Positions 3,782-43,005 of a DNA stretch of 64,000 nucleotides are shown here, piece after piece (the stretch's first letter is position 1; every line of letters starts with the position of its first letter). The notes under the pieces were generated by a model that had not been told where the DNA came from, searched no databases, and worked only from the letters and a program-made list of their open reading frames with translations. Position numbers and translations under genes: made by a program. The stretch is from positions 633 through 64,632 of the forward strand of contig JACPZE010000044.1 of assembly GCA_016195685.1 (NCBI GenBank), in the 5' to 3' direction. The stretch is from Candidatus Gottesmanbacteria bacterium (GTDB lineage: Bacteria; Patescibacteriota; Microgenomatia; 2-02-FULL-39-11).

Positions 3782-4231
3782 TTATCGTGTCACTTGTATG
3801 GTTTCACTAAGCTCAGCGCCAGGAGCAGAAACAGTGATACGATTGTCAGTAGCGCTTTTCACTACCTTATAGTTGGTAGTGTAAGATGCTGTACAATCCG
3901 TAACGTCCCCACCTGTCACTAACGGATCTCTCGGTAGAGCAGCCAGATATTTGGTCACAACAGATGCGCAAATGTCTGCTTCTCCAGTGCCGTTTCCAAT
4001 TGTCAGCGCGCTGGTTGTAATCGCAGCTGGAAGCGCGCCTTTGTTGTCCGCAGCGTATTGGTGAACTGCATTTAACAGCGCATTCACGTCGCTTCTTCGT
4101 TTGGTGTTATTGGCTTGTGAAAATTGCCTGGCCGGATTGATTGCTACCAAAGCGATAGCAAAAAGAACTGCCAAAATGCCTATAACAACCAGGATTTCTA
4201 TCAGCGTAAATCCTTTCTGGTTTTTCCTCAT
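3782..4231 (-). CDS. pilA: Type IV pilin (class III signal peptide, major pilin candidate)
   Basis: N-terminus MRKNQKGFTLIEILVVIGILAVLFAIA has the canonical G-FTLIE prepilin cleavage/methylation motif. Confidence 0.85.
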   Translation of the reverse strand: MRKNQKGFTLIEILVVIGILAVLFAIALVAINPARQFSQANNTKRRSDVNALLNAVHQYAADNKGALPAAITTSALTIGNGTGEADICASVVTKYLAALPRDPLVTGGDVTDCTASYTTNYKVVKSATDNRITVSAPGAELSETIQVTR

Positions 4232-6058: not shown

Positions 6059-8050
6059 CTAAGGTGAATAATTAAAAGTAATATCATATAAAGTTGGCGC
6101 AACAGTTGGTGAAGAAGTAGAGAAATAGGCTTTATACTTTACACATCGACCTGGGTTACTAAAACCGTTCTGATTACTGGTAAATGGTATAGGCCAGGAT
6201 ACTGAGAAAGGAGAAGTATTGTAAGTAGAAGAAGTAAAATAAGCGTTTGGATCCGGCACATACGGATTAGTCGCGCTTGGACCAAAAAAAGTATATGTGG
6301 CGTTGGAGCAACTTCCGTTGACAGGTTCACTGATGGCAATTTGAAATTTTATACTTGTATTGGATGGTTGAGAGACGGTAGCAAATAGTCTATTAAAGGC
6401 GACATCAGTACCAGGATCGGATAAAACTGCTGACTGATATGTTCCGGATAGTGCAAATGTTCCCCCCGGTCCTCCCTCAATTATTTGAAGTTCAGCGCTG
6501 GCATTGTCAGTCAAAATATAAGAAAAAGCATCTGTATCGGGTTCCAACACAGATGATATCGCATTTAGGCCGGTAACTCCTGTAGGGCTAGTTTGACCGC
6601 AGAGACTGATATTTGTCTTTATTTGTGTGTTGAATACCTGATACAAAGTTCCGCCAGTGCCTACAATAACAGCTCTATTTCCGTTTAAAACGTTAATTAC
6701 TCCTTTTGGTGTCATTCCATTTGTATTTGAGCTGTTTATACTTTGGGGAGAAGTTGGATTGGATATGTCTACGATATAAAAGTTTGATTTCCCTGACGCA
6801 TAGGCGGTGACAATAAAAAGATATGATCCAGTTGGATCAATGTCCAAATCTATACCGGCCAGATTATTCCCTAAGTTTACATTTGTAATCGCATGAGTAC
6901 TAATATTAATAATTTGCAGCTGACTGGTTGTACTATCGGTTGCGACAAATAAATAGTTTCCATAAATAAGTACCTTTTTACCCGTACCTGCTAAATTCAC
7001 ATTCCATAATTCAGTTTGAGAGGAACTACCAAGTATTGTAGTGACATCAAAAGCATAAAGTTTGCTGCCGGCAGCGACGTAGCCGGTGTTTCCAGAGACA
7101 TAAACACTGTTACCCGGTCGTTCTCCTCCTGAGGAGTTAAAATAACCAGCATGTGAAAGAGTAGTAGGATTTACTATATCTACAGTTAAGTTAGGATGGT
7201 CTGAGGTTAAATAAACATAATTTGGAGTGGCATAAATTGCATAAGTTTTAAAATAATTATAAGCACCTGCATTTGCCGCTGCCGGTGCAATAGGCTGGGG
7301 GGGATCGGAAATATTTACGCTATCCATAGAGTCCCCTGAAGCATTCCCTCCGGTTGTGGTATAAGCATGCCCATAGATTGCACTGATTGCGGTAGTTATC
7401 CCCTGGCCGGGAAGATCAAGAGTGTTAACCACCTCATTTTGAGGCTTACACCAGTCTCCGCGGCCTGGGCCGGCCGCGGTCAAGGTTATCTCCCCGCCAC
7501 TATTATTGGTTATTACAGTATTATTGTTAACACTTCCAGATTGGTTGAAATCTGCCTGTGTTGTTTGTAAAACATTAGCATTTTTAAGAAACCTGGTAAG
7601 GTACATTGTGCTGTCAACAGATGAAGAAAAAGGAGTATTCCATGATACGGTTGAAACGATTTTCTTAGTGGCTGGATCGATTGTCCCACCCGTTGAAACG
7701 ATATTCCCATTTGTACCTATTTGGGTATCACTTATCACAATTTTTCGGGTATATCCGTTCACTACCTCAGAATTTGATCCTAAAGACCAAGTGTTACCTG
7801 AAATAACAGGATGGTAAGTACCGTTGACGGCAATTGAAGACCAATTGGTCTCTCGTACACTCCGAATTGCTTCCTCAGCTTCTTTAAGGTACGTAGTGGC
7901 TTCAAGTCTTTGTGTTTGTTGCGCTTTACCTTCTCTGGAAGCGACCAATCCGGTTAAAAGTGCAGGTAAAAAAATACTCGCAAGTCCTATGGCGATTAAA
8001 AATTCTACGATTGTTTGTCCTTTTTGTTTGGTCATAAAGATTAAACACAA
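6059..8050 (-). CDS. Large (about 660 aa) prepilin-like protein, possible pilus tip/adhesin minor pilin
   Basis: KGQTIVEFLIAIGLASIFLPAL class III signal, then a large beta-rich S/T/N-rich domain. The probable start is the internal MTKQKGQ. Confidence 0.7.
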   Translation of the reverse strand: MCLIFMTKQKGQTIVEFLIAIGLASIFLPALLTGLVASREGKAQQTQRLEATTYLKEAEEAIRSVRETNWSSIAVNGTYHPVISGNTWSLGSNSEVVNGYTRKIVISDTQIGTNGNIVSTGGTIDPATKKIVSTVSWNTPFSSSVDSTMYLTRFLKNANVLQTTQADFNQSGSVNNNTVITNNSGGEITLTAAGPGRGDWCKPQNEVVNTLDLPGQGITTAISAIYGHAYTTTGGNASGDSMDSVNISDPPQPIAPAAANAGAYNYFKTYAIYATPNYVYLTSDHPNLTVDIVNPTTLSHAGYFNSSGGERPGNSVYVSGNTGYVAAGSKLYAFDVTTILGSSSQTELWNVNLAGTGKKVLIYGNYLFVATDSTTSQLQIINISTHAITNVNLGNNLAGIDLDIDPTGSYLFIVTAYASGKSNFYIVDISNPTSPQSINSSNTNGMTPKGVINVLNGNRAVIVGTGGTLYQVFNTQIKTNISLCGQTSPTGVTGLNAISSVLEPDTDAFSYILTDNASAELQIIEGGPGGTFALSGTYQSAVLSDPGTDVAFNRLFATVSQPSNTSIKFQIAISEPVNGSCSNATYTFFGPSATNPYVPDPNAYFTSSTYNTSPFSVSWPIPFTSNQNGFSNPGRCVKYKAYFSTSSPTVAPTLYDITFNYSP

Positions 8051-11335: not shown

Positions 11336-12574
11336 TCAATCAATAAGACTTGCGACTTTTTGTCCAAGTTCAATTGCGTAGTTGGTGCCTCTGTCCCATG
11401 GGTATACCATGTCCATATTCGCTAGGTAAACGTTTGGGATGGGTGTAATAAAGTCTGGTTTTATCTTTGAGTAGTTTGTGGGGAAAACTGGTTGGGCGAA
11501 AGGACCCATAAATAATTGAGAATTGAGAATTAAGAATTGAGAATTAAGTCGGGGATTGATTTTTTGAAGATAGGGAAGATATAGTTTTAATAACTCATCT
11601 TTGGTCATTTTAAGGTAGGGATGACCTTCTGGGAGATAATTTCCTACCCAAGTAAGGTGTTTTCCGCCATAATGTTTTGCATCCACCAAATTAGTTTGTT
11701 GGATAACTGCAATAAAAGGGAAAGTCCTGTCATTTATATTGAGCCAATATTCCTTTTCAAGTATTTTCTCTTTTGTCACGAGCAGTAGATTTAAAGCGTG
11801 CAAATGTGGAATATTCGTAAGTCTTTCTTTATAATCTTTTGGAAGTTGTGGGTACATTTTTATGAATATTGGGGAGGGTGTAGTGATAATGATCTTGTCA
11901 TAGTCTGTCGTTTTTTTGGTATCAAAAGGAGTAGAAAGTAATATCTTACCCCCGTCTTTTTTAAATTGCTTTTCCATTGCGTCTATCAGAGTTTGGTATC
12001 CGCCTTCCAGGTATCCTAATACTAGAGTGCGTTTTTTTATCCTAGCCCAAAACCAAGCCATGTTTACTACTTTTGCAAACTTTCCGAATTTGCCGAATAG
12101 GAGTGGTTTCCAGACAATCTCATATACTTTTTCACCAAAATATTTTCTCAGCCACTCATGGGCCAGATGTTTTTCTAAATTCTGACCAGAATTCATCGAT
12201 AAAAGTTTCAGAAACAAAGTGATTAGCCCAAGTCTTAGTCGATCTGTAAACGGAAGGGGAGAGAAAAAAAGGATTTGCAGTGGAGAATTAAAAGGGTAGC
12301 TTGTTTCCTGATAATAGATAGAAGTAAGAGTTTTTGGGAAAAGTAACTTTTCGGAAAGTCCCAGTTTTTTAATCAAATTTAAAGCAAAGTAATCATTGGA
12401 AAACCAATGGTGGTAGTGTTTTTCCACATACCAATCTGTACCCGGTAACTTTACCGCCGAAGCTAAGCCGCCTAACTCGCCAGTTGCTTCAAAAAGAGTC
12501 ACTTTATGATTTTGGGAAAGAGAAAGGCCAGCAGAAAGTCCGGTAAATCCTCCTCCCACAATTGTGATTTTCAT
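11336..12574 (-). CDS. FAD/NAD(P)-binding oxidoreductase (amine oxidase / phytoene desaturase-like)
   Basis: MKITIVGGGFTGLSAGL is a Rossmann dinucleotide-binding N-terminus. The track start at 12598 is a GTG inside the upstream repeat element, so the ATG at 12574 is preferred. It contains an in-frame heptamer repeat encoding LNSQFLILNSQL. Confidence 0.7.
   Translation of the reverse strand: MKITIVGGGFTGLSAGLSLSQNHKVTLFEATGELGGLASAVKLPGTDWYVEKHYHHWFSNDYFALNLIKKLGLSEKLLFPKTLTSIYYQETSYPFNSPLQILFFSPLPFTDRLRLGLITLFLKLLSMNSGQNLEKHLAHEWLRKYFGEKVYEIVWKPLLFGKFGKFAKVVNMAWFWARIKKRTLVLGYLEGGYQTLIDAMEKQFKKDGGKILLSTPFDTKKTTDYDKIIITTPSPIFIKMYPQLPKDYKERLTNIPHLHALNLLLVTKEKILEKEYWLNINDRTFPFIAVIQQTNLVDAKHYGGKHLTWVGNYLPEGHPYLKMTKDELLKLYLPYLQKINPRLNSQFLILNSQLFMGPFAQPVFPTNYSKIKPDFITPIPNVYLANMDMVYPWDRGTNYAIELGQKVASLID
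11511..11548. repeat. In-ORF tandem heptamer repeat (aattgag/aattaag)
   Basis: ataattgagaattgagaattaagaattgagaattaagtc, read directly. Confidence 0.6.
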
Positions 12575-12582
12575 ATTTTGAT

Positions 12583-12660
12583 TTACGGGTCCTGCCACTT
12601 AGTATCCCAACGCTACGATACATCTCCGGTTGGGACCCCTCTCTCGTGTCACCCGTTGTA
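12583..12660 (-). repeat. Palindromic 80-95-nt element (RPE-like), copy A, in the 5' UTR immediately upstream of the oxidoreductase start
   Basis: tttACGGGTcctgcc...tatcccaac...gttggga...gtcACCCGTtg has an outer stem ACGGGT/ACCCGT and an inner stem tcccaac/gttggga. It is homologous to copies at 25788, 36281 and 30418. Confidence 0.7.
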
Positions 12661-12685
12661 AATCGATGGAGATATATTATCCAGT

Positions 12686-13233: not shown

Positions 13234-13400
13234 CCCTTCGGATAAGGAGAATGCTTAAGAGATTTTTTCCTCTACAACCTCCGAAGTGGGTATCCCGAAT
13301 TTTTCGGGAGATGAGGTTAAAGTATCCACGCACCCGTGGGTGCGGGATCTACCTCCCCATTGTTGCTTCGGGGAAAAATCTTAAGTAGTCTTCCTTTTTT
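13234..13400 (+). ncRNA. Candidate structured small RNA upstream of rho (unknown family)
   Basis: Putative promoter TTGACA(13198)-17nt-CATACT. Closing stem cttaagagattttt/aaaaatcttaag. Internal hairpins tcccgaa-ttttt-cggga and gaggttaaagtATCCaCGCACCCgtgGGGTGCGGGATctacctc. A T-run follows at 13393-13400. No family assignment was possible. Confidence 0.25.
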
Positions 13401-25470: not shown

Positions 25471-27279
25471 TTATTTCTCACACACGTAATTTCCCATCAC
25501 TAATATATCTATTCCGGATCTTTCCAAAGTTGAATAAGCGTCGGCAGGGGAGGCGACAATTGGTTCTCCACGCAGATTAAATGAGGTATTTAATACAAGT
25601 GGTACGCCTGTTTTTTTGTAAAAAGATTTTATCAATTGGTAGTAAAGAGGATTTTCCTTTTCATAAACTAGTTGAGGTCGAGCCGTATTATCTGCATGAT
25701 TTATGGCTGGTACTTTCTTTTGCCATTCTTTCTTGACTGGTACCACATACAACATGTAGCGAAGAGGATAGTGATTTTCTAATTTTAATTTACGGGTCCT
25801 GCCGCTTAGGTATCCCAAACTACGATACATCTTCGTTTGGGATCCCTCCTTCGCGTCACCCGTGGTTAAAATAGATGTATTCATAGCTGATAAATCAAAT
25901 ATCTTATCAGCATATTCTGCAAGTACAGAAGGGGCAAAAGGGCGGAAAGCTTCCCGGAATTTCACTTTTCTATTTATAATATCTTTCATTTTCAGGTTTC
26001 GGGCGTCTGCCAGGATACTTCTTGCTCCCAGCGCTCTTGGTCCCCATTCAAATCTTCCTTGCATCCAACCGATGACTCGGCCTTTTGATATTTTATCCGC
26101 GATAAAATCAACGATCTTTTTGTCATTTAATTTTTTAAATTTTGCTTTTTTCTCCTTCAAAAACTTCTCAATTTCCGGATTATCATATTGTTTTCCCAGA
26201 TAAGCGTGGGTCATCATTTTTCGATTGCCTTTATTTAAGACATGATGATATGCATATAAAGCCGCACCCATTGCTCCTCCAGAATCACCCGCTGCCGGTT
26301 GTACAAAAATATTTTTAAAGCCAGATTCTTTTAAGATCCGGTAATTAGCTACAGAGTTTAATGCTACACCACCTGCTAGGCACAGATTATCTGATTTAGT
26401 TTTGTTTCTTACATATTTGGCCATACCCAGAATCAATTCTTCTGTTACCAGCTGTACACTCGAAGCGATATCGGCTGGCCGTTTTTCTACCAGATGAGAT
26501 TGGTTCGGATCGATTGGACTTCCCAAGAGTTTTACCAATTTTTCAGAAAATGATTTTTTATCAGAGTACTGAAAAGAAAAATAGGAAAAGTCCAAAGAGA
26601 AACTGCCATCCGCAAGTTGCCGTACTGTTTTCCAGATTTTATCTGCATAGATAGGTTTGCCGTATGGAGCTAGACCCATGAGTTTCCATTCTCCTTCGTT
26701 TACCTCAAACCCCAAAAATGCAGTAAAAGCAGAATAAAAAAGTCCAAGAGATTGAGGAAAACGTATTTCGGAATTTAATCTGAGCTTGCTTCCCTCGCCA
26801 ACCCCAAATGATGAGGTGGTCCATTCGCCGACACCATCCAAAGTGAGAATCGCTGATTTTTTAAAAAGGGATGGATAAAAACAGCTGGCCGCATGGGATA
26901 AATGATGATCGCAAAAAAGTATTTTGGAAAGATCAACTTTTACATAAGATGAAATTTCCTGTTTTATCCAAAGTTTTTGTGTCAGCCAGACCCGAATACC
27001 CTCCCTAAAACTTGCATATGACAGGGGATAAGTTGATATTGCACTGATAAGCATGCGGTGAAACTTCCTGAAAGGTTTTTCATAAAATACTACATAATCT
27101 AAATCAGACTTGCTGACATGAGCAATCTCCAGGCAAAAATCAATCGCATTTTTGGGAAAAGACGAATCGTGTTTTTTACGGCTGAACCGTTCCTCTTCTG
27201 CTGCAGCTAAAACTTCTCCGTCTTTTAAAAGTACGGCAGCTGCGTCATGATAATAACAGGAAATTCCTAAGATATTCAT
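25471..27279 (-). CDS. Carbamoyltransferase (NodU/CmcH family)
   Basis: MNILGISCYYHDAAAVLLKDGEVLAAAEEERFSRKKHD and C-terminal PAINHADNTARPQLV...VLNTSFNLRGEPIV are family hallmarks. The start is set to the internal Met overlapping the upstream gene's stop. It carries a roughly 30-aa in-frame insertion from the palindromic element. Confidence 0.85.
   Translation of the reverse strand: MNILGISCYYHDAAAVLLKDGEVLAAAEEERFSRKKHDSSFPKNAIDFCLEIAHVSKSDLDYVVFYEKPFRKFHRMLISAISTYPLSYASFREGIRVWLTQKLWIKQEISSYVKVDLSKILFCDHHLSHAASCFYPSLFKKSAILTLDGVGEWTTSSFGVGEGSKLRLNSEIRFPQSLGLFYSAFTAFLGFEVNEGEWKLMGLAPYGKPIYADKIWKTVRQLADGSFSLDFSYFSFQYSDKKSFSEKLVKLLGSPIDPNQSHLVEKRPADIASSVQLVTEELILGMAKYVRNKTKSDNLCLAGGVALNSVANYRILKESGFKNIFVQPAAGDSGGAMGAALYAYHHVLNKGNRKMMTHAYLGKQYDNPEIEKFLKEKKAKFKKLNDKKIVDFIADKISKGRVIGWMQGRFEWGPRALGARSILADARNLKMKDIINRKVKFREAFRPFAPSVLAEYADKIFDLSAMNTSILTTGDAKEGSQTKMYRSLGYLSGRTRKLKLENHYPLRYMLYVVPVKKEWQKKVPAINHADNTARPQLVYEKENPLYYQLIKSFYKKTGVPLVLNTSFNLRGEPIVASPADAYSTLERSGIDILVMGNYVCEK
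25788..25870 (-). repeat. Palindromic RPE-like element, copy B, inserted in-frame inside the carbamoyltransferase
   Basis: tttACGGGTcctgccgcttaggtatcccaaactacgatacatcttcgtttgggatccctccttcgcgtcACCCGTgg. Translated in the gene frame it gives LTTGDAKEGSQTKMYRSLGYLSGRTRKLKLE with no stop. Confidence 0.75.
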
Positions 27280-27509
27280 CAGAATTGTTCTTTTAGTTCT
27301 TCTAAGGTATCGTTGTGTGTATTTTTTAAACTCCAAGTGGATACCGGGAGGGTTTTAAACCCGAGTTTGTCTTTCGTAAAAGTAAAAATAATTCCGAAAG
27401 GCAAAAGAATTGTAAAATAGAAGATAGACAGTATTACTTGCGCTTGGAATACTGCAATGCGGTGGGCGATTTTTTTCCATTTTTGCCAAATAGACTTTAT
27501 TATCTGCAT
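27279..27509 (-). CDS. Small membrane protein, SxtJ-like, in the carbamoyltransferase operon
   Basis: 76-aa ORF with 2 TM helices, immediately upstream of and overlapping the carbamoyltransferase start. Confidence 0.45.
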   Translation of the reverse strand: MQIIKSIWQKWKKIAHRIAVFQAQVILSIFYFTILLPFGIIFTFTKDKLGFKTLPVSTWSLKNTHNDTLEELKEQF

Positions 27510-29434: not shown

Positions 29435-30412
29435 TTAATTCGATAACTTCAGCATCCTTTCAATTGGTATTCTAGCCCTTTCTGCTATTTCTTTGGGAAC
29501 TTTTACTTCATAGACTAGATTCTTCAGAGTATTTAGTAACTTGGGTAGGGTGATCATTTTCATAAATTCACAAACCATATCATCACGAAGGGGTATAAAA
29601 TTTTTCTGCGGGTTATCTTTCTTCATGCGGTATAAAATTCCAGTTTCTGTCGCGACGACATATTCTTTTGCAGGAGATTGTTGTACATGCTTCATCATTC
29701 CGCCGGTTGAAAGGATTTTGGTTTTTGATGTGGGTATATCTCCGCTTGCTACATAGTGCATGCAGGTGGAAACGCAACCGCATTCAGGATGGATAAGAAA
29801 TTCAGCTTGGGGATGTTCATCCATTTTTTGGATAATATCAGCTGGTTTTACCCTAGCATGGACGTGGCATTCACCCGGATAAATAATCATATTTTTGCGG
29901 CCTGTAGTTTTGGCCACATAATCACCCAAAAACATATCAGGTAGGAAAAGAATAGGTTTTTCGGGAGGTAAAGAATTGACTATTTTTACAGCATTAGCCG
30001 ATGTGACGCAGTAATCTGATTCCGCTTTTACTTCTGCTGTGGTATTCACATAAGAAACAACTAAAGCTTCAGGGTACATTTTCTTCCATTTCCGTAATTC
30101 TGTGCCGTCAATACTGGCAGCCAGAGAACAGCCGGCATTTAAATCTGGGATAAGGACAGTTTTATCAGGTGAGAAGATAGAGGCTGATTCTGCCATGAAA
30201 TGGACACCGCAAAAAACAATAAGTGATTTTTTTGTTTCTGCGGCAAGTCTGGATAGTTCCAGGGAATCACCCACAAAATCCGCGACATCTTGGATTTCCG
30301 GGAGCTCGTAATTATGAGCAATTATTAATGCTCCCCTTTTTTCTTTCCAAAGGAGGACGTCTTTCATCAATTTTTGTTTTTCTTCTTCAAGCTCATTGTT
30401 TTGCTTCGTCAT
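29435..30412 (-). CDS. nadA: Quinolinate synthase NadA
   Basis: IIAHNYELPEIQDVADFVGDSLELS, VFCGVHFMAESA and Cys ligands. Confidence 0.9.
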   Translation of the reverse strand: MTKQNNELEEEKQKLMKDVLLWKEKRGALIIAHNYELPEIQDVADFVGDSLELSRLAAETKKSLIVFCGVHFMAESASIFSPDKTVLIPDLNAGCSLAASIDGTELRKWKKMYPEALVVSYVNTTAEVKAESDYCVTSANAVKIVNSLPPEKPILFLPDMFLGDYVAKTTGRKNMIIYPGECHVHARVKPADIIQKMDEHPQAEFLIHPECGCVSTCMHYVASGDIPTSKTKILSTGGMMKHVQQSPAKEYVVATETGILYRMKKDNPQKNFIPLRDDMVCEFMKMITLPKLLNTLKNLVYEVKVPKEIAERARIPIERMLKLSN

Positions 30413-30417
30413 TTTAA

Positions 30418-30432
30418 TTTACGGGTCCTGCC
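30418..30432 (-). repeat. Partial copy D of the palindromic element (tttacgggtcctgcc), abutting the nadA start codon
   Basis: The same 15-mer terminus as copies A-C; the minus strand reads GGCAGGACCCGTAAATTAAAATG. Confidence 0.5.
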
Positions 30433-30597
30433 GTATTCTGTATCAGCATATAAATTTTTCAGACTCTGCAGCTCGTGCTCGGTATAGCCCTAACCGTCTG
30501 TCCATATGCCTTAATATTCTCGCACTCAATTGCAGAGATCTTCAAAATTCATATTTCTTACTGAATTAGTATCGCAATGCCCGTGGTTAAATTTAAA

Positions 30598-30684: not shown

Positions 30685-32208
30685 ATGAAAACTGATTTTA
30701 TTGTGATTGGATCAGGTTTAGCTGGACTTACAAGTAGTTTAATTCTTTCTAACTACGGAAAAGTTTTGTTGGTTACCAAAGGAAAACTATCCGATGGGGC
30801 AACTAATTGGGCGCAGGGAGGTGTTGCTTGTGTGGTGGAAAAGAATGATACTTGGCAGAAGCATTATAAAGATACTCTCGTTTCCGGAGCATACCATAAT
30901 GACAGAAAGTCAGTTGAATTTTTGGTGAAGAATGCTCCATCAGCTATTGATTGGCTTGAAAAGATGGGGGTCCCTTTTGAGAAGGAAGAAGGCCATTTTA
31001 AAGTAGGGAGGGAGGGAGGGCACTCCTATAACCGGATTATTCACGCCACAGATTTTACCGGCAAAGAAATAGAATTTACCCTTCTTAAGAAGATAAGGGA
31101 GAATAAAAATATAATTATTTGGGAAGATTCTTTTGCCCAAAAATTATTAGTGGAGAGGAAGAAATGTTTTGGCGTTCAAATAATAAAAAAGGACAAAATT
31201 ATTCTTTGTTATTCAAAGTTTACGATACTAGCCACTGGAGGGTTAGGTCAAATTTATCAGTGGACTACAAATCCGCTAGTTTCTACAGGGGATGGTTATG
31301 CTCTCGCTTATCGGGGAGGAGTAAAATTAAAAGATATGGAATTTATACAATTCCATCCGACTGCTCTAAAACCTGCCTCCTCGGCAGGCAGGTATGGTAA
31401 TTCGCCGCTATTTCTTCTCACTGAAGCATTGCGAGGGGAAGACGCTTATTTAGTAAATTCCAAAGGAGAAAGATTTATGGGAGATTATGATAAGAGAGAA
31501 GAATTAGCTCCTCGAGATATAGTTTCCCGAGCTATTTTTGAAGAGCAACAAAAAGGATACGAGATCTATCTGGATATCAGGCATAAAAGAAAACAATTCT
31601 TAAAGAAAAGATTTCCCAATATTTATGAAGAACTGAAAAAAAGAGGGTTTGATCTAGTAAAACACTTAATCCCAGTCACTCCAGCAGCCCATTTCAGTTG
31701 CGGGGGAGTAGAAACTGATTTGTCCGGCAGGACTAATATAAAAAACCTCTTCGCATTTGGAGAAGTAGCTTGTACTGGTGTGCATGGAGCCAACAGGTTA
31801 GCCTCGAATTCTTTACTTGAAGCAGTAGTTTTTCCGCTCCGTCTGCTGAGGTCAGCGAGACTTTTTTGCGCACCTCCCAGTTCGTCCACTCCTTTGCCTC
31901 CGGCAAACTCGTGGTACTCAGGAAACAGTGGGCGTGCTCAAAAAGCTAGCTTCCCTGCAGACTTTTATCTAAATATAAGAAAAAATCTCCAAAAACTTAT
32001 GTGGGAGAAGGTGGGGATAGTGAGAAGAAAAAGGGATTTAGAATATGCGATAGGTAAGTTAAGCAGTTGGGAAAAAGATCTGGAAGATTTGGATTATCCC
32101 AGTAGAGAATTATTGGAATTAAAAAACATGATATTGGTGGGAAAACTCATTACCCAATCAGCACTCAAAAGAAGAAAAAGTCTAGGGACGCATTTTATTA
32201 CCGTATGA
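30685..32208 (+). CDS. nadB: L-aspartate oxidase NadB
   Basis: DFIVIGSGLAGLTSSL FAD site, RxxHxxGG-like HPTAL and the succinate dehydrogenase/fumarate reductase flavoprotein fold. Confidence 0.9.
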   Translation: MKTDFIVIGSGLAGLTSSLILSNYGKVLLVTKGKLSDGATNWAQGGVACVVEKNDTWQKHYKDTLVSGAYHNDRKSVEFLVKNAPSAIDWLEKMGVPFEKEEGHFKVGREGGHSYNRIIHATDFTGKEIEFTLLKKIRENKNIIIWEDSFAQKLLVERKKCFGVQIIKKDKIILCYSKFTILATGGLGQIYQWTTNPLVSTGDGYALAYRGGVKLKDMEFIQFHPTALKPASSAGRYGNSPLFLLTEALRGEDAYLVNSKGERFMGDYDKREELAPRDIVSRAIFEEQQKGYEIYLDIRHKRKQFLKKRFPNIYEELKKRGFDLVKHLIPVTPAAHFSCGGVETDLSGRTNIKNLFAFGEVACTGVHGANRLASNSLLEAVVFPLRLLRSARLFCAPPSSSTPLPPANSWYSGNSGRAQKASFPADFYLNIRKNLQKLMWEKVGIVRRKRDLEYAIGKLSSWEKDLEDLDYPSRELLELKNMILVGKLITQSALKRRKSLGTHFITV

Positions 32209-34015: not shown

Positions 34016-35215
34016 ATGCTTAAATATCTTTTTATTATCTCTTTCTTTCTCGGATTGAGCCTCTTTTTATCTCCTGTAAAAGTCTCTGCAGAAGAAGTTT
34101 CCTGTATGGGAAAGCCAGCTACAATAGTTAACGATCTGGAAAATGTGGTTATCAATGGAACTGAGGGGGATGACGTAATTGTCAGTACCGCACAAAATGT
34201 TGATATTTATGGTAATGGTGGAAATGACACTATATGTGCCGCAGGAAAAGCAAGAATTTGGGGAGGAGATGGTGATGATAAAATCGATGGAGGGGGAGCA
34301 AGTGAAATCCATGGTGGTCCCGGTGACGATGTAATATTTGCTCACGCGGGCGCTGGAAATACAGGAACTATTAACAGTACAGAGGCATATAACGGAACAC
34401 CCGGAGTAAACTGTTTAGCCGGAACAGGAGTTGAAGACAGTAGCACGATTTATGGAGATGAAGGTAATGATATTTTAGTCGGATGTGGTGGGCATGATAT
34501 TTTAGATGGCGGTCCAGGTGTAGATGCAATATTTGGATATGGAGGTACTGATCTTCTTTACGGTGAGGATGGGAATGATTTGTTAGTAGGTAATGATGGT
34601 GATGATACGATTTACGGTGGTCCTGGTTTAAATACAATTTTGGGTGGAGGTGGAAACGATACAATTTATGGAGGAGATGATGGGAATTATATATATGGAG
34701 GAGAGGGGAATGATTCTCTTTTTGGGGGAAATGGCAATGATTATATATTTGGGGAAGCCGGTAATGATGAAATCTATGGTTATGGAGGGGATGATTATAT
34801 AATTGGAGGAGAGGGAGCAAATGTAATTGATGGTGGAACAGGATACAATAGATGTATGCAAGGTGATCCTATGTATAATTGCGTTGATCTTTTACATCCG
34901 CCAACCCCAACTCCTGCTCCTACAGATGAGCCTACACTTACGCCTACTATCACTATTACTCCTACAGTGACTCTTACTCCTGTACCTTTGGAGCCTACGC
35001 TTACCAGTACTCCTACTCCTGTAGTTCCTACACCCACAACGCGATTGCCAAGTCTAGTTCTACCAACAATAAATTGGACATTGCCTCAATTATGGTTATT
35101 ATCACCCACACCAACTATTGGAGGAGATAATGGTCCTACACCCACAGTACAACCTACACCTACTCAACCTAGTAGTTCAAATAGGTATAACAGGCCACCT
35201 TACCGTATTAACTAA
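34016..35215 (+). CDS. Secreted hemolysin-type calcium-binding (RTX) repeat protein with a P/T-rich C-terminus
   Basis: Signal peptide MLKYLFIISFFLGLSLFLSPVKVSA. Many GGxGxDxxx nonapeptide repeats (GNGGNDTI, GGDGDDKI, GGPGDDVI...). Confidence 0.7.
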   Translation: MLKYLFIISFFLGLSLFLSPVKVSAEEVSCMGKPATIVNDLENVVINGTEGDDVIVSTAQNVDIYGNGGNDTICAAGKARIWGGDGDDKIDGGGASEIHGGPGDDVIFAHAGAGNTGTINSTEAYNGTPGVNCLAGTGVEDSSTIYGDEGNDILVGCGGHDILDGGPGVDAIFGYGGTDLLYGEDGNDLLVGNDGDDTIYGGPGLNTILGGGGNDTIYGGDDGNYIYGGEGNDSLFGGNGNDYIFGEAGNDEIYGYGGDDYIIGGEGANVIDGGTGYNRCMQGDPMYNCVDLLHPPTPTPAPTDEPTLTPTITITPTVTLTPVPLEPTLTSTPTPVVPTPTTRLPSLVLPTINWTLPQLWLLSPTPTIGGDNGPTPTVQPTPTQPSSSNRYNRPPYRIN

Positions 35216-37583
35216 TTTTCTTTCGAAAAATAATAAAAATTATTCCCAAGATTATTTCTCCGGCTAAAAGAAAAACTTTCAACTTATTCGGTTCATAGGT
35301 AAATTCCACTGTGTGAGTTCCGGGTGTGACTGGAGTAGCTAGATAAAATGGGAACACTGCGAATTTACTTGCCTCGTTTCCATCCAACTTTACCTTCCAA
35401 TCAGGATGGTAACTCATCTTAAACATGGCATAACAATATTTACAGTTATTCGGTACTTCAATTGTGGCGGAAAATGTTTGTTTTGATTGATTATCTTTGA
35501 TTATTTTTCCGGAAGGAGTAGATTCTGGAAACATGAGAGGAAAATCCGCGAATATATTCTTGGATTGCCCGTTTTCTATATAATTTGTTTCATCAGTCAT
35601 GGTTAAAACTCTTTGCATGTTTTGTGGAATAGTAGGATTATTCTCTACAGAGATAAGAGGGTGCATTTTCCACCTTCGGGTGTAGGAATTCCACCAATAA
35701 TGGACAAGGTTTAGATAATTCGTCTTATCGCTTTTTACCATCATTGGAGAAGTTACCACATCAAACCAACCGGTAGTAGGTGCCTGGAAAAGATTAAACG
35801 GGCCGTATTTATCAACCAATTTTAGACTAGATGCGAAACCTTCATTTTTCGCAGCTACAGCATATTTTATATTCAGCAGATCAAAGTCCAAAGCCTCTCT
35901 TTCATCAAAATCCTGCTCGTTTTCAGAAAGGGGCGACCAGGTTTCTGGTAGGAATTGGCTGATGTCATATCCTATACCTCCAAATAAAAGATAAAGTTCT
36001 GTTGATCCAAGTCTGAAATTTTTGCCCCAATTTCCAGGCCTTCCGGCATAGATTCTTCCGCGTGGAAGGGAATCGATCTTTGCGAGTAGATTTTGGAAAT
36101 TATGTTCATCATAGCGGTAGGCATCATTCGCCTGGTAAATCCATTTGTTATTTAAAGTGGCATAATCAGCAGTTTGTTTGGTAGTTATGTAGATCAAAAA
36201 GGATGCGAATATAAATAATAAGATATAAAAGACTATATTGAGATTTGGATTCACAGCCTCAATACCGAATTTCTCATCTGCGCGGGTTCTGCCGCGAAAG
36301 TATCCCAACTTCGTCCCGCTAAGCGGGACTACGTTTGGGAGTCCCTCCTTCGCGCCACCCACAGTTAATAATTTTGATATTTTATATTTGATTTTTGATA
36401 TAAACGAAAATAAATATTCCAACCCAGCTGGAATTAAGAATAGTGCTGCAATATGTACCCCCACTATAAATCTATGCTGGTGAAAGTCTTTCATACCGGG
36501 GATAAGATCGATCAGTCCTCCCCAAGTTGTTCTGCCAAAATATAAAATCATCCAGAAAGCAAAAAGAAGAGAAAAAGGAAAATATTTCCTGCGGATAGTC
36601 AGGACAAAAAAACCTGCCAAAACAAGAATAGTTACAATAGGGAATCTCTGCCAGTCAAAAATCTCCCCTGCAAACAGTTGTCTTGCCACTTCATACCATC
36701 CGTATGAATTGAATTTCCAGATAGGATCCCAGAAAGAGATGATGTGATATTGATTATTTAAAAGAATGGGAATAATCCAATATGAAAGAATTAAGAAACA
36801 TGAAGCAAGAATGAAGAATAATTTCTTACCCCTATTTATTATTTGAGATAAATTTAAATCTAGAAATATAAAAGGTATGGTAGAGAGAAATCCTATTATT
36901 CCGATACCTAGGTGTCCCATGACTGTGAGGGTGAGAAATATTATCGATTTTAAGGTGTATTTATTCCACAACTTGTAATCCTTACTACTTGATTCGTCAC
37001 CGATTAATGCCCTATAAGTAAAAGCAATTCCGAGTGGTAGGAAAATAAGTGCATAAAGCTGTGAAGTGAGTCCGTAGCCTCGCCAAAGGTAACTTGGCGG
37101 GTCAATACCGTAAAGTCCGTCTGTTGAGTAGTGAGCAGAGAAGAACGCTCCTAAAGCAGCCAAGATGGGTGAGAAACCAACTATTCTGAGAGCTAAAAAA
37201 ACAGATAGAGGAAAAAGACTTAGCAGTAAGTATTTTGTCCAATTATAGTAATTGTAAATTGAAAATTGAGAATTGAAAATTGAAGAGATGGGTTTAATAA
37301 AAAGATGATATGAGGAGACAATTGTTATTTGAGGTATATGACTGTAATAAAATGGAAGGGGATAACCTTCAGCCCAATTGGTTACATTATGGTCGATAAG
37401 ATTAGGTAAGCAAGATAAAGATAGTGGGCAACCGTAATTTTCCCAAACCCAATTGGTTCTGCCTACCAAAGAAAATTGAAAAATATTATCATTTGGATCA
37501 GCCAAGATTTGAGTCTCCGGATAGTTGAGCCAGAGATTAAAGATTATTGTTGCTGCTAATATTAAATAGGCGATGTATTTCAT
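35208..37583 (-). CDS. Large polytopic membrane protein, GT-C-like (YfhO/PMT-like), carrying an RPE-like insertion and heptamer-repeat insertions
   Basis: 791 aa with many TM helices and a C-terminal soluble domain. The element inserted in-frame gives LTVGGAKEGLPNVVPLSGTKLGYFRGRTRADEKF. Confidence 0.6.
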   Translation of the reverse strand: MKYIAYLILAATIIFNLWLNYPETQILADPNDNIFQFSLVGRTNWVWENYGCPLSLSCLPNLIDHNVTNWAEGYPLPFYYSHIPQITIVSSYHLFIKPISSIFNSQFSIYNYYNWTKYLLLSLFPLSVFLALRIVGFSPILAALGAFFSAHYSTDGLYGIDPPSYLWRGYGLTSQLYALIFLPLGIAFTYRALIGDESSSKDYKLWNKYTLKSIIFLTLTVMGHLGIGIIGFLSTIPFIFLDLNLSQIINRGKKLFFILASCFLILSYWIIPILLNNQYHIISFWDPIWKFNSYGWYEVARQLFAGEIFDWQRFPIVTILVLAGFFVLTIRRKYFPFSLLFAFWMILYFGRTTWGGLIDLIPGMKDFHQHRFIVGVHIAALFLIPAGLEYLFSFISKIKYKISKLLTVGGAKEGLPNVVPLSGTKLGYFRGRTRADEKFGIEAVNPNLNIVFYILLFIFASFLIYITTKQTADYATLNNKWIYQANDAYRYDEHNFQNLLAKIDSLPRGRIYAGRPGNWGKNFRLGSTELYLLFGGIGYDISQFLPETWSPLSENEQDFDEREALDFDLLNIKYAVAAKNEGFASSLKLVDKYGPFNLFQAPTTGWFDVVTSPMMVKSDKTNYLNLVHYWWNSYTRRWKMHPLISVENNPTIPQNMQRVLTMTDETNYIENGQSKNIFADFPLMFPESTPSGKIIKDNQSKQTFSATIEVPNNCKYCYAMFKMSYHPDWKVKLDGNEASKFAVFPFYLATPVTPGTHTVEFTYEPNKLKVFLLAGEIILGIIFIIFRKKIS
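36281..36368 (-). repeat. Palindromic RPE-like element, copy C, inserted in-frame in the GT-C-like gene
   Basis: cGCGGGTtctgccgcgaaagtatcccaacttcgtcccgctaagcgggactacgtttgggagtccctccttcgcgccACCCAC. It is in the same frame as copy B and the inner hairpin is 9 nt longer. Confidence 0.7.
37250..37286. repeat. In-ORF heptamer repeat (aattgta/aattgaa/aattgag) encoding SIFNSQFSIYNY
   Basis: aattgtaaattgaaaattgagaattgaaaattgaag. Confidence 0.6.
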
Positions 37584-41275: not shown

Positions 41276-43005
41276 ATCGTCACCGCTTCTTTATCGTAAA
41301 CTGGTTTCAAAAGAGTAGGGTAAAGATAATTTTTGGCAAAAGGTTTTTCTTCCGGGCCTTGGAATACTAGAGCAATTTTATTACTCACAAGGAAGTTTTT
41401 AGCTTCTTCTGTGGTCATTTTATCTTCAAATAATCTTTGTGTATCATTTTCCTTTTCCTGCTCTTTATATGTATAGCCAAAATGGCCGATAAAACTGATC
41501 GTATTGGTATATGCTGGCAAATAATTTCCGGTATAAAAGGTAGAGAGTGTAACTGATTTGGTTGGATAATTTAGGTTTATGAAATTAAAAGCATCAAAAA
41601 TCCTATTATCCAGATAAACATTGCCATAAAATGGCCAGTATTCCCTGATCTGATCTTTGATACTCCAGTAAAGGGTGGGGTAAGTAAATATAATAAATAA
41701 CGTAATACTAGTAAGAGCAACTAAATTTGAAATTTGAAATTTGAAATTTGAAATGAAATCTAAATTTTTAATATTTAATTTTTGAAAATTCAATGAAAAT
41801 TTAAAATTGAAAATTGAAAATTGTTTAAGAAACTTTTCAATAGTCTTAATTCCCAGTATTGCTAGTATTGCCAATGGTAAATATGGTACCCCCTGTATTA
41901 AGCGGACATTTGAAAGATTTAATTTTGGAGCGATAGGTATAAAAAGAAGTGGAATTACTAACCAGCAAAGGATAAATATGTTTTCAAACTTTTTGGATTT
42001 TATGGTCTGATAAATTTCCATGATAGAAAATGGTAGAAGAATACCCAGCGCTCCAATTAGCTCTCTATCGAGGGGAAACTGCAGGTTTTTCTCCCAGTCG
42101 ATATACTGGCTCCAGGGAAAACCATTCTTGGTTTGAGAAACCATAAACAATAAAAATATTAACCCAATAACCCAATAACCCAATAACCCAATCAGTTTTG
42201 ACTTTTGAATTTTAACTTTTGAATTTTGGCCATTGGAAATATTTAAAAAGTAGTAAATCAACATGCTAGAAGGAATTATTAATAAGATGATCAGTAAGCT
42301 CGGTGTATGTACAAATGCCATAATTGCGCTAAGTAGAATGAGCCAGAATAGATATTTTCGTTGGGGTTTATTGATATATTTGAAAATGACAATTATTGAA
42401 GTGACAAGTAGAAATCCCCCCAACATGTGATGCGGTAGAAATGCGGCCCTTCTTACAGGATCGATGCCATTCCACCAATGCATGTAAGGTACTGACCGAA
42501 GAGTTCCATAATCATTGATAGTATGCATAAATGGTGAAGCAAATAAAAAGAAAAAGTATGTAAGATTTGGATATGGAATTTTGAGATATAAAATCAGGTA
42601 GTAAGAAGTAATAAGTAGGATTAAACCAAGAATAATTCTAGTCAGGTGATAGGTATAAGGATACCAAAGACCCAATATTTTGCTTAATCTACCAAGCCAC
42701 AAAAAGTAAGAAAAAATTATAGATGGTTGATGTCCTTCAGAAGTGTAAGGATCGTAAGTCATCCAAGCGCCATTTGCCCCTTCATTCATAAGAGAGAGAT
42801 AGAAGTAATAGTCTTGGGTATTGTTATGAATTAACGTCAAGGTACGGCCGGGAGGAGTATGTCTGACTTGCATGATCATCGGAGTGAGGTTGAGGGCAAG
42901 AATAAATAAAGTGGCGAGAACAAAAAAAACAATTTTTGATTTGAGGATTTTTAATATCACTGAGAATTTATTGTAAATTGTAAATTGTAAATTGTAAATT
43001 ACCAA
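41257..43005 (-). CDS. Polytopic membrane protein (GT-C-like) with two in-frame heptamer-repeat insertions
   Basis: ORF; paralog of the preceding gene. The insertions encode IFNFKFSLNFQKLNIKNLDFISNFKFQISN and LIGLLGYWVIGLIF. Confidence 0.55.
   Translation of the reverse strand: MVIYNLQFTIYNKFSVILKILKSKIVFFVLATLFILALNLTPMIMQVRHTPPGRTLTLIHNNTQDYYFYLSLMNEGANGAWMTYDPYTSEGHQPSIIFSYFLWLGRLSKILGLWYPYTYHLTRIILGLILLITSYYLILYLKIPYPNLTYFFFLFASPFMHTINDYGTLRSVPYMHWWNGIDPVRRAAFLPHHMLGGFLLVTSIIVIFKYINKPQRKYLFWLILLSAIMAFVHTPSLLIILLIIPSSMLIYYFLNISNGQNSKVKIQKSKLIGLLGYWVIGLIFLLFMVSQTKNGFPWSQYIDWEKNLQFPLDRELIGALGILLPFSIMEIYQTIKSKKFENIFILCWLVIPLLFIPIAPKLNLSNVRLIQGVPYLPLAILAILGIKTIEKFLKQFSIFNFKFSLNFQKLNIKNLDFISNFKFQISNLVALTSITLFIIFTYPTLYWSIKDQIREYWPFYGNVYLDNRIFDAFNFINLNYPTKSVTLSTFYTGNYLPAYTNTISFIGHFGYTYKEQEKENDTQRLFEDKMTTEEAKNFLVSNKIALVFQGPEEKPFAKNYLYPTLLKPVYDKEAVTIYKLNL
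41723..41824. repeat. In-ORF tandem heptamer repeats (aatttga x4 ... aaattga x3)
   Basis: ctaaatttgaaatttgaaatttgaaatttgaaatgaaatc...aaattgaaaattgaaaattg. Confidence 0.65.
42160..42230. repeat. In-ORF tandem repeats (aacccaat x4, then ttttgaa/ttttaac units)
   Basis: aacccaataacccaataacccaataacccaatcagttttgacttttgaattttaacttttgaatttt. Confidence 0.6.
42970..43000. repeat. Intergenic tandem heptamer repeat (ttgtaaa x4)
   Basis: ttgtaaattgtaaattgtaaattgtaaatt. Confidence 0.6.

Follow-up and report, generated by a model that had tools for sequence, protein, structure and literature searches.

According to the part of PMC10969869 that cites Ogata 2000 and 2002, 44 Rickettsia palindromic elements (RPEs) reside in unrelated genes of R. 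conorii, in frame and in a manner compatible with the protein fold; in R. felis, 85 of 728 RPE copies are in open reading frames (ORFs) (PMC1166351). Here we describe a hairpin element in a 64,000-nucleotide (nt) stretch of contig JACPZE010000044.1, from a metagenome-assembled genome of Candidatus Gottesmanbacteria (hereafter, the window), which holds four copies of it, all co-oriented (A to D, Table 1). Copies B and D lie in the same reading frame in two unrelated proteins, a carbamoyltransferase and a YfhO-like membrane protein of GT-C fold, and have the peptide G.AKEG...LGY..GRTR in common, as a first-pass annotation of the sequence had noticed (36281-36368 for copy D). The element is probably a non-autonomous palindromic mobile family of Gottesmanbacteria (Microgenomates, Candidate Phyla Radiation, CPR), similar to transposable elements of the miniature inverted-repeat type (MITEs) and RPE-like, whose survival in genes is determined by a filter. 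RPEs appear to be its closest analogue, by description and not by sequence membership, in an unrelated host lineage.

The likeness to RPEs includes a short palindromic repeat, a small, AT-rich, reduced genome, the lack of an attached transposase, and a distribution over both intergenic DNA and unrelated housekeeping genes, to which an extra fold-compatible peptide is added in frame (in the present case a predicted one). The two differ in their hosts (CPR Gottesmanbacteria versus Alphaproteobacteria) and in the intragenic fraction, which is higher here (8/21 in a pattern-based sample, versus about 12% in R. felis). The Gottesmanbacteria element further differs in its strand-asymmetric hairpin, tandem G.A pairs, invariant purine loops, modular apex and GC-skew-linked orientation, none of which is known to us from descriptions of RPEs; the invariant loops with their tandem G.A mismatch, the modular apex and the replication-strand bias are unusual for an element of this kind.

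Bacterial MITEs (QMITE1/2 of Coxiella, PMC5896051; ERIC; Correia) likewise occur as small, non-coding sequences in multiple copies; their termini are inverted repeats, a strong hairpin is predicted for them, and they too overlap ORFs and lie near start codons. The present element stays below about 500 bp, is found many times over (36 copies in about 257 kb; four in the 64-kb window) and is bounded by terminal inverted repeats. It differs from these MITEs in that conservation is found in internal loops and in helices with compensatory changes, not at the termini alone, and in that no target-site duplication and, among the Pfam families of the fetched contigs, no parent insertion sequence (IS) was found. 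A full-text literature search gave no report of MITE-like repeats in CPR genomes.

With IS200/IS605 and with the repetitive extragenic palindromic (REP)/RAYT system the element shares an orientation bias relative to the replication strand and a DNA hairpin, specific to one strand, that is probably the form recognised (PMC5027513, PMC6006769, PMC3733652). IS200/IS605 elements, however, have two separate subterminal hairpins, whereas here a single long hairpin has inverted termini and variable 5' flanks. Derivation from IS200/IS605 was rejected, as there are no two hairpins and no fixed 5' tetra- or pentanucleotide, and only the strand bias is similar; moreover, the strand forming the stable hairpin is the C-rich one, the presumed leading-strand template, which is the opposite of the active strand of IS608. 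A Y1/HUH gene was not apparent from the precomputed Pfam families of genes called on the fetched contigs. REPs are 20-40 nt long and extragenic and carry a GTAG or CGTC tag; the long hairpin described here has no such tag, and half of its copies are intragenic. A REP/REPIN assignment was rejected on account of the ends, (A/G)CGGGU...ACCCG(U/C), the restriction of CGUAG to the apical loop of one subfamily, and the copies within genes. Integron attC sites (PMC5371416) are also imperfect hairpins. They measure about 60-140 nt, keep certain unpaired bases conserved and vary in their terminal structure, and they act as one folded strand whose orientation is biased relative to replication, two properties that the present element would share. 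It has neither R''/R' boxes (RYYYAAC / GTTRRRY) nor a cassette array or integrase context, and its copies lie within genes. An attC identity was discarded, given a hairpin base of (A/G)CGGGU/ACCCG(U/C), flanking 7-mers that fit RYYYAAC only sporadically, and GUAAAUU on the 3' side.

The extent of the family was determined in metagenomic contigs. A pattern derived from the conserved 3' arm retrieved copies from one Gottesmanbacteria genome, three metagenome-assembled genomes labelled Gammaproteobacteria and about 17 metagenome contigs, the remaining matches being chance occurrences in GC-rich DNA. A covariance model (R1) built from 20 copies yielded, across the window and 25 related CPR contigs, a total of 36 copies at E below 1e-6, which all differ in their flanks; since several contigs are syntenic, the copy counts are not fully independent. 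A distribution across phyla was considered, as contigs L003, L004 and L007 are titled "uncultured Gammaproteobacteria", and was dismissed: L003 (CAYUNW010000011.1) codes for the same trio of YfhO, ALG6/NPCBM and third GT-C genes as the window, a synteny which makes the label (or the binning) doubtful. So far, Gottesmanbacteria-like genomes are the only ones for which the family is documented. Rfam 15 at gathering thresholds detected two tRNAs in the window and no match to the element, nor was there a match on the element in contigs L002, L003, L004 and L007 at E up to 1.

The element measures 94-195 nt and has no coding capacity of its own. On the sense strand, the 5' half of the consensus reads AUUUUAnnA, helix P1 (A/G)CGGGU, loop GA, helix P2 CGCGAGNG, loop AGGGR and helix P3 UCCCAAAC, followed by a variable apex; the 3' half consists of P3' GUUUGGGA, loop WA, P2' CNCGAGCG, loop GCAGG, P1' ACCCG(U/C) and AAAUUAWAAU. 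The terminal inverted repeats thus comprise the AT-rich arms and the P1 helix. Both sides changed in 12 of the 20 base pairs and 89% of the alignment cells were paired, values that were matched in none of 500 shuffles; registers slid along the alignment were only 21-49% paired. At the outermost pair 16 copies have GC and 15 have AU. P2 has a tandem G.A/A.G mismatch at its centre (G.A in 28/36 copies, A.G in 23/36), replaced by Watson-Crick pairs in a minority that includes copy D. The purine-rich loop nucleotides (GA, AGGGR, WA, GCAGG) are almost invariant across copies, and for 21 of 23 copies a more stable fold was calculated for the sense strand than for its complement. The apex is modular: a 15-nt loop in cores of 72-73 nt, a GC hairpin in those of 81 nt (copy D, L008), and several long forms in cores of up to 173 nt. 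Readings as a k-turn, a terminator or a promoter were examined by eye on the alignments and rejected; on either side the G.A pairs adjoin three Watson-Crick pairs, and a T-run is lacking. At three loci (L018 2608-2701, L021 4843-4937, L004 4687-4814) the element was seen nested within a second palindrome (GAGUUUCGCGUAU ... AUAACGCGAAACUC), which suggests either another repeat family as target or a longer composite form.

Copy D is a clear member of the family (79.5 bits against R1, E 3.5e-19), as is copy B (101.1 bits). The 81-nt core of copy D occurs once in the window, compared to none expected from shuffles; its P2 is the fully Watson-Crick variant, and the RNA is predicted to fold at -43.7 kcal/mol (z -3.9), the antisense strand being less stable (-34.9). 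The segment is 55% GC in a genome of about 38% GC. The inner hairpin of copy D had been described as 9 nt longer than that of copy B. The length itself was borne out by alignment, the apex measuring 24 nt versus 15 nt in copies A and B, which accounts for the 9 extra nt (core of 81 versus 72 nt). It is not, however, an extension of the short apex: copy D has a different apical module, and a module of the same kind is present in intergenic copy L008, so that the 9-nt difference is a subfamily trait which is found outside genes too.

The protein that carries copy D is identical to HY029_06160; its ORF of 791 amino acids is intact and contains LTVGGAKEGLPNVVPLSGTKLGYFRGRTRADEKF, and the core codes for about residues 408-434 (VGGAKEGLPNVVPLSGTKLGYFRGRTR). 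Pfam matches to YfhO and DUF6541 fell slightly below threshold. A Foldseek search with the AlphaFold model returned AftD, AftA, DPY19, OST/AglB (AglB/STT3) and PMT as best matches (E 1e-5 to 5e-3), in keeping with a GT-C architecture, in which a multi-helix N-terminal membrane domain precedes a C-terminal soluble domain. In the same model a coil with pLDDT below 50 (residues 410-445) connects helices 384-409 and 446-505; this coil coincides with the insert and supports a loop location of copy D. Such a location is supported for the insert of copy B as well: in an alignment of the carbamoyltransferase to PDB chains 9s2t and 7xb6, residues of about 485-526 are extra, between two matched stretches, and orthologues without the insert exist.

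The preserved frame of copies B and D, despite their difference in length, had been interpreted as evidence for either selection on translatability or an insertion mechanism that senses the frame at the RNA or protein level. The latter would entail a fixed codon phase and length changes in whole codons, and in its favour, the phase at the start (ACG/GCG GGU GAC, translated as T/A-G-D) is common to all 16 sense coding copies, and copies B and D differ by exactly 9 nt. The 5' arm of sense coding copies is indeed always read as (T/A)G(D/G). This constancy is expected, since a TGA is conserved in frame 2 (GGGUGAC) and frame 1 is closed in all but 2 of 36 copies, which leaves frame 0 as almost the sole usable sense frame. 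Core lengths, furthermore, showed no bias towards multiples of 3 and were spread alike in the two groups (remainders 0, 1 and 2 modulo 3 in 7, 7 and 2 sense coding copies, and in 6, 9 and 3 intergenic ones). The reading of the 3' arm varies with core length among host genes (GRTRK, RQDPQ or AGPxN, three frames in all); the RQDPQ reading is limited to copies with a G-C closing pair, which removes the TAA of ACCCGUAAAU. Two copies, in NadB of L009 and in the carbamoyltransferase of L037, are in frame in the antisense orientation, and the 81-nt variant also occurs outside genes (L008). A frame-aware insertion therefore seems to us exceedingly unlikely.

Selection on translatability fared better. 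The host frame was free of stops in all 16 sense coding cores, compared to 10 of the 18 intergenic cores. Stops thus occur in that frame in 8/18 intergenic cores, as opposed to 0/16 in sense coding cores; once the AT-rich arms are added, the host-type frame stays open in just 2 of 18 intergenic copies. The unbiased lengths, the three frames of the 3' arm, the stops in intergenic cores and the antisense copies together indicate that the coding copies are a selected subset, for which no sensing of phase is needed.

The same data bear on two further explanations. One is that the element is an intervening sequence, removed by intron-like splicing or by translational bypassing, which never appears in the protein. 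CPR bacteria are known for introns in their rRNA genes, and a stable hairpin (about -30 to -59 kcal/mol) within coding sequence might be taken to fit. Removal, however, would call for no open phase, yet the coding cores are stop-free where intergenic cores often are not, and the antisense in-frame copies are open as well; the element is also too small for a group I or II intron, and none was detected by Rfam. We regard this scenario as very improbable. The other is that of a functional peptide cassette shuffled among proteins, with which the N-terminal motif (T/A)GDA(K/R/S)EG in all sense coding copies would agree. Intergenic copies, however, conserve the same nucleotides just as well, three frames are used for the C-terminal half, and there is free variation in the apex; in the AlphaFold prediction the insert is a disordered coil, and an exhaustive profile search of 1.84 billion representative proteins yielded only 5 matches (E up to 0.001), so that a selected protein module has hardly any plausibility. 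(A word-indexed peptide search with a 142-residue concatenate gave 2 matches and missed the window's own proteins; it was too insensitive for counting frames.) The frame-0 sense peptide is hydrophilic (grand average of hydropathy -0.78, 28% charged, 27% Gly/Ser/Thr), and the peptides of the antisense frames have a higher hydrophobicity and contain more Pro and Cys.

Half of the copies (18/36) are located within long ORFs, both halves of which match known families, and these ORFs represent at least 10 unrelated gene families. The hosts detected by R1 are the carbamoyltransferase, the YfhO-like GT-C protein, its ALG6/NPCBM neighbour, a third GT-C-like membrane protein, NadC, NadB, Maf, Rpe and an MFS transporter, to which the exhaustive profile search added a transaldolase with two copies. 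Alignments of orthologues show that the same few loops are hypervariable, with copies of different subfamilies in different lineages and none in many. In YfhO orthologues copies are found at three different loops, and many orthologues have no copy; carbamoyltransferase orthologues have a base length of about 569 residues and inserts at three hot spots. The loop that holds copy D also carries genuine copies in P0003 (L034) and P0010 (L036), each with a different apex and P2.

Several genes were seen to hold more than one copy. The Maf orthologue of L024 has two in tandem (586-792; another Maf orthologue copy is at L029 98-192), and transaldolase P0127 and the YfhO gene of L036 (5529-5637, 6237-6348) have two each, at separate loops; in L020 a possible degenerate second copy (AGGTIEGL) lies directly upstream of an intact one. 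Recurrent in-frame insert peptides unrelated to the element were also encountered: HPELVSGS...RQVRHD in YfhO orthologues (alignment A2, columns about 403-440; P0022, P0005, P0008) and VILATPPKRGRPESGGDPG in carbamoyltransferases (alignment A6, columns about 450-500; P0133, P0137, P0142). These suggest that more in-frame repeat families exist in these genomes.

The orientation of the copies was found to follow the DNA strand. With the elements masked, the sense strand was the strand of negative GC skew (C-rich) in 24 of 26 contigs (binomial p about 1e-5), and in 14 of 16 after roughly ten contigs syntenic with the window were left out. The skew had the same sign in genes of both orientations (-0.05 in co-oriented and -0.10 in opposite genes), all copies were co-oriented in every multi-copy contig, and both antisense coding copies obeyed the rule. 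Orientation is therefore set at the DNA level, which hints at a single-strand or replication-linked mechanism, replication polarity being deduced here from GC skew only. Alternatively, the bias may reflect selection against stable hairpins on the lagging-strand template. Relative to genes, coding copies are 16 sense (plus 2 weak) versus 2 antisense, and intergenic copies occur in both orientations with respect to their neighbours.

These observations also bear on the possibility that the element is a cis-acting structured RNA, serving as a regulatory, stabilising or translation-initiation module in mRNAs or untranslated regions. The strong covariation, the conserved loops and the better folding of the sense strand would suit such a function, as would the many sense intergenic copies that stop 6-15 nt short of a start codon. 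On the other hand, at least six intergenic copies are antisense to both neighbours (L007, L008, two in L011, L021, L025), as are two coding copies to their hosts; orientation tracks GC skew and not transcription; the host genes have no common function; no Rfam match was found even at E up to 1; and intergenic regions are so short that any insert adjoins a start codon. We consider a cis-acting RNA an unlikely explanation.

Sense copies that end 6-15 nt upstream of a start codon were observed in the window (copies A and C, start codons at 12574 and 30412), in L012 and L013, upstream of P0122, at L009 11349-11442 and L039 6774-6883 (both nadC), and at L040 1928-2052. In these the sole Shine-Dalgarno-like AGGA lies within the conserved GGCAGGA loop, 11-16 nt upstream of the start. 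Such copies could provide a portable initiation region, or could be a mere result of very short intergenic spacers. They also affect gene calling. The mechanical start of ORF 11336..12598 (-) is a GTG within copy A, and a Rossmann motif points to the ATG at 12574; in HY029_02420 (P0122) of the same genome the deposited protein starts upstream of the element and reads through it, with a prepilin-like N-terminus (MGQSILEVLIAL) directly after. The open frames of the element probably drag ORF starts upstream, and these two cases would then be annotation artefacts.

Taken together, these results are best explained, in our judgement, by the MITE-like, RPE-like family proposed above, and we would favour the following course of events. 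The unit, of about 95-190 nt, would consist of an AT-rich inverted-repeat arm, a GC-rich three-helix hairpin with an exchangeable apex, and the matching arm. Copies would land in intergenic DNA and in genes alike; within genes, the survivors would be those that are stop-free in the host frame and lie in structurally permissive loops, and they would presumably be translated, as their intact frames suggest, into a hydrophilic, disordered peptide of 25-60 residues. The common frame of copies B and D would be an outcome of this filter and not of frame sensing. The purine-rich strand of the hairpin may be recognised by a protein as folded single-stranded DNA.

Several points weigh against this explanation. 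Mobility itself is inferred; no insertion event, exact ends or target duplication was seen. No empty site was recovered at the DNA level, orthologues having at most 72-77% protein identity and those of the carbamoyltransferase being too divergent, and the orthologous Big_1 / amine-oxidase intergenic region of L039 is of unrelated sequence and offers no empty-site comparison; the flanks of the copies show no evident direct repeat. No autonomous partner and no transposase was found in the precomputed Pfam families of the genes called on the fetched contigs, a scan that included neither the window genes nor the rest of the genome. A filter against stops does not by itself explain the 16:2 excess of sense coding copies, as in the intergenic pool the three antisense frames are open in 5, 8 and 7 of 18 copies, more often than the sense frames (2, 2 and 0); tolerance of the peptide and the DNA-strand rule, which both fit this excess, may be the additional factors. 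The presence of three different subfamilies in one YfhO loop (copy D, L034, L036) requires repeated insertion, gene conversion or structural selection in situ. Finally, the near-invariant loop nucleotides argue for a specific ligand. In an additional scenario the hairpin is more than selfish DNA: it may serve as substrate for a mobilisation or recognition system of CPR bacteria that is strand-specific and coupled to replication, its loops and G.A pairs forming the site of a dedicated protein, and/or the start-abutting sense copies may be portable, partly domesticated modules of initiation or mRNA structure. We hold this to be conceivable, though with a rather low probability.

The features of the window discussed here are collected in Table 1. 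The end of copy A lies 10 nt upstream of the ATG of a gene of the FAD amine-oxidase family (Pfam), and that of copy C lies 8 nt upstream of the nadA ATG; copy C scored only 15.7 bits against R1 (E 0.15).

Table 1. Copies of the hairpin element in the window and features associated with copy D
Feature	Position	Strand	Description
Copy D, full element	36270..36372	-	AT-rich 5' arm, hairpin core and degenerate 3' arm; in frame in YfhO-like gene
Copy D, hairpin core	36282..36362	-	81 nt; P1 GUGGGU/ACCCGC; P2 CGCGAAGG/CUUUCGCG; P3 UCCCAAAC/GUUGGGA
Copy D, apical module	36313..36329	-	GUCCCGC-UUA-GCGGGAC, in place of the 15-nt loop GAAGAUGUAUCGUAG of copies A and B
Host gene of copy D, HY029_06160	35208..37583	-	791-residue YfhO-like membrane protein, predicted GT-C fold, Candidatus Gottesmanbacteria
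Heptamer tract	36373..36401	.	TTTGATA, period 7, 4.1 copies (Tandem Repeats Finder)
Copy B	25780..25873	-	72-nt core 25792-25863; in frame in carbamoyltransferase 25471..27336; encodes TTGDAKEGSQTKMYRSLGYLSGRTRKLKLE
Copy A	12573..12666	-	72-nt core 12585-12656; intergenic; 81 bits against R1
Copy C, degenerate	30409..30594	-	P1 and GGCAGG loop kept at the two ends; about 146 nt of unrelated interior

The heptamer tract reported next to copy D proved to be real. On the coding strand it yields the Lys/Ile-rich SKIKYKISK, directly N-terminal to the insert. It is similar to other AT-rich period-7 tracts of the window (ATTGAAA / AATTTGA type, in both orientations), which are mostly intergenic (588-686, 1496-1591, 11515-11545, 41719-41836, 42938-43000), but it lies inside coding sequence. 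A separate GC-rich long hairpin (31841-31965, -44 to -52 kcal/mol) is in frame in the nadB gene of the window (30685..32208, +), where it adds some 40 residues (SARLFCAPPSSSTPLPPANSWYSGNSGRAQKASFPADF); contig L009 has an antisense copy of the element at this very site of NadB. It was not detected by R1 and had no BLAST relative among the fetched loci, and was left unclassified. GC-rich islands at 3974-4072, 7399-7522 and 13303-13376 were also considered and are not copies of the element.

CPR genomes are tiny and streamlined, and are generally held to be poor in mobile DNA. The element described here resides in central enzymes (NadB, NadC, Rpe, transaldolase, Maf, carbamoyltransferase) and in envelope glycosyltransferases, which it makes 25-60 residues longer, and it accounts for part of the hypervariability seen in the loops of CPR protein families. 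It is probably also a cause of annotation errors, such as start codons moved upstream via its open frame. Its conserved, strand-asymmetric hairpin with a replication-strand bias offers a handle in the search for a mobilising enzyme. The phenomenon of protein-coding palindromes, described in 2002 as unique to Rickettsia, is thereby extended to an unrelated lineage of reduced genomes.

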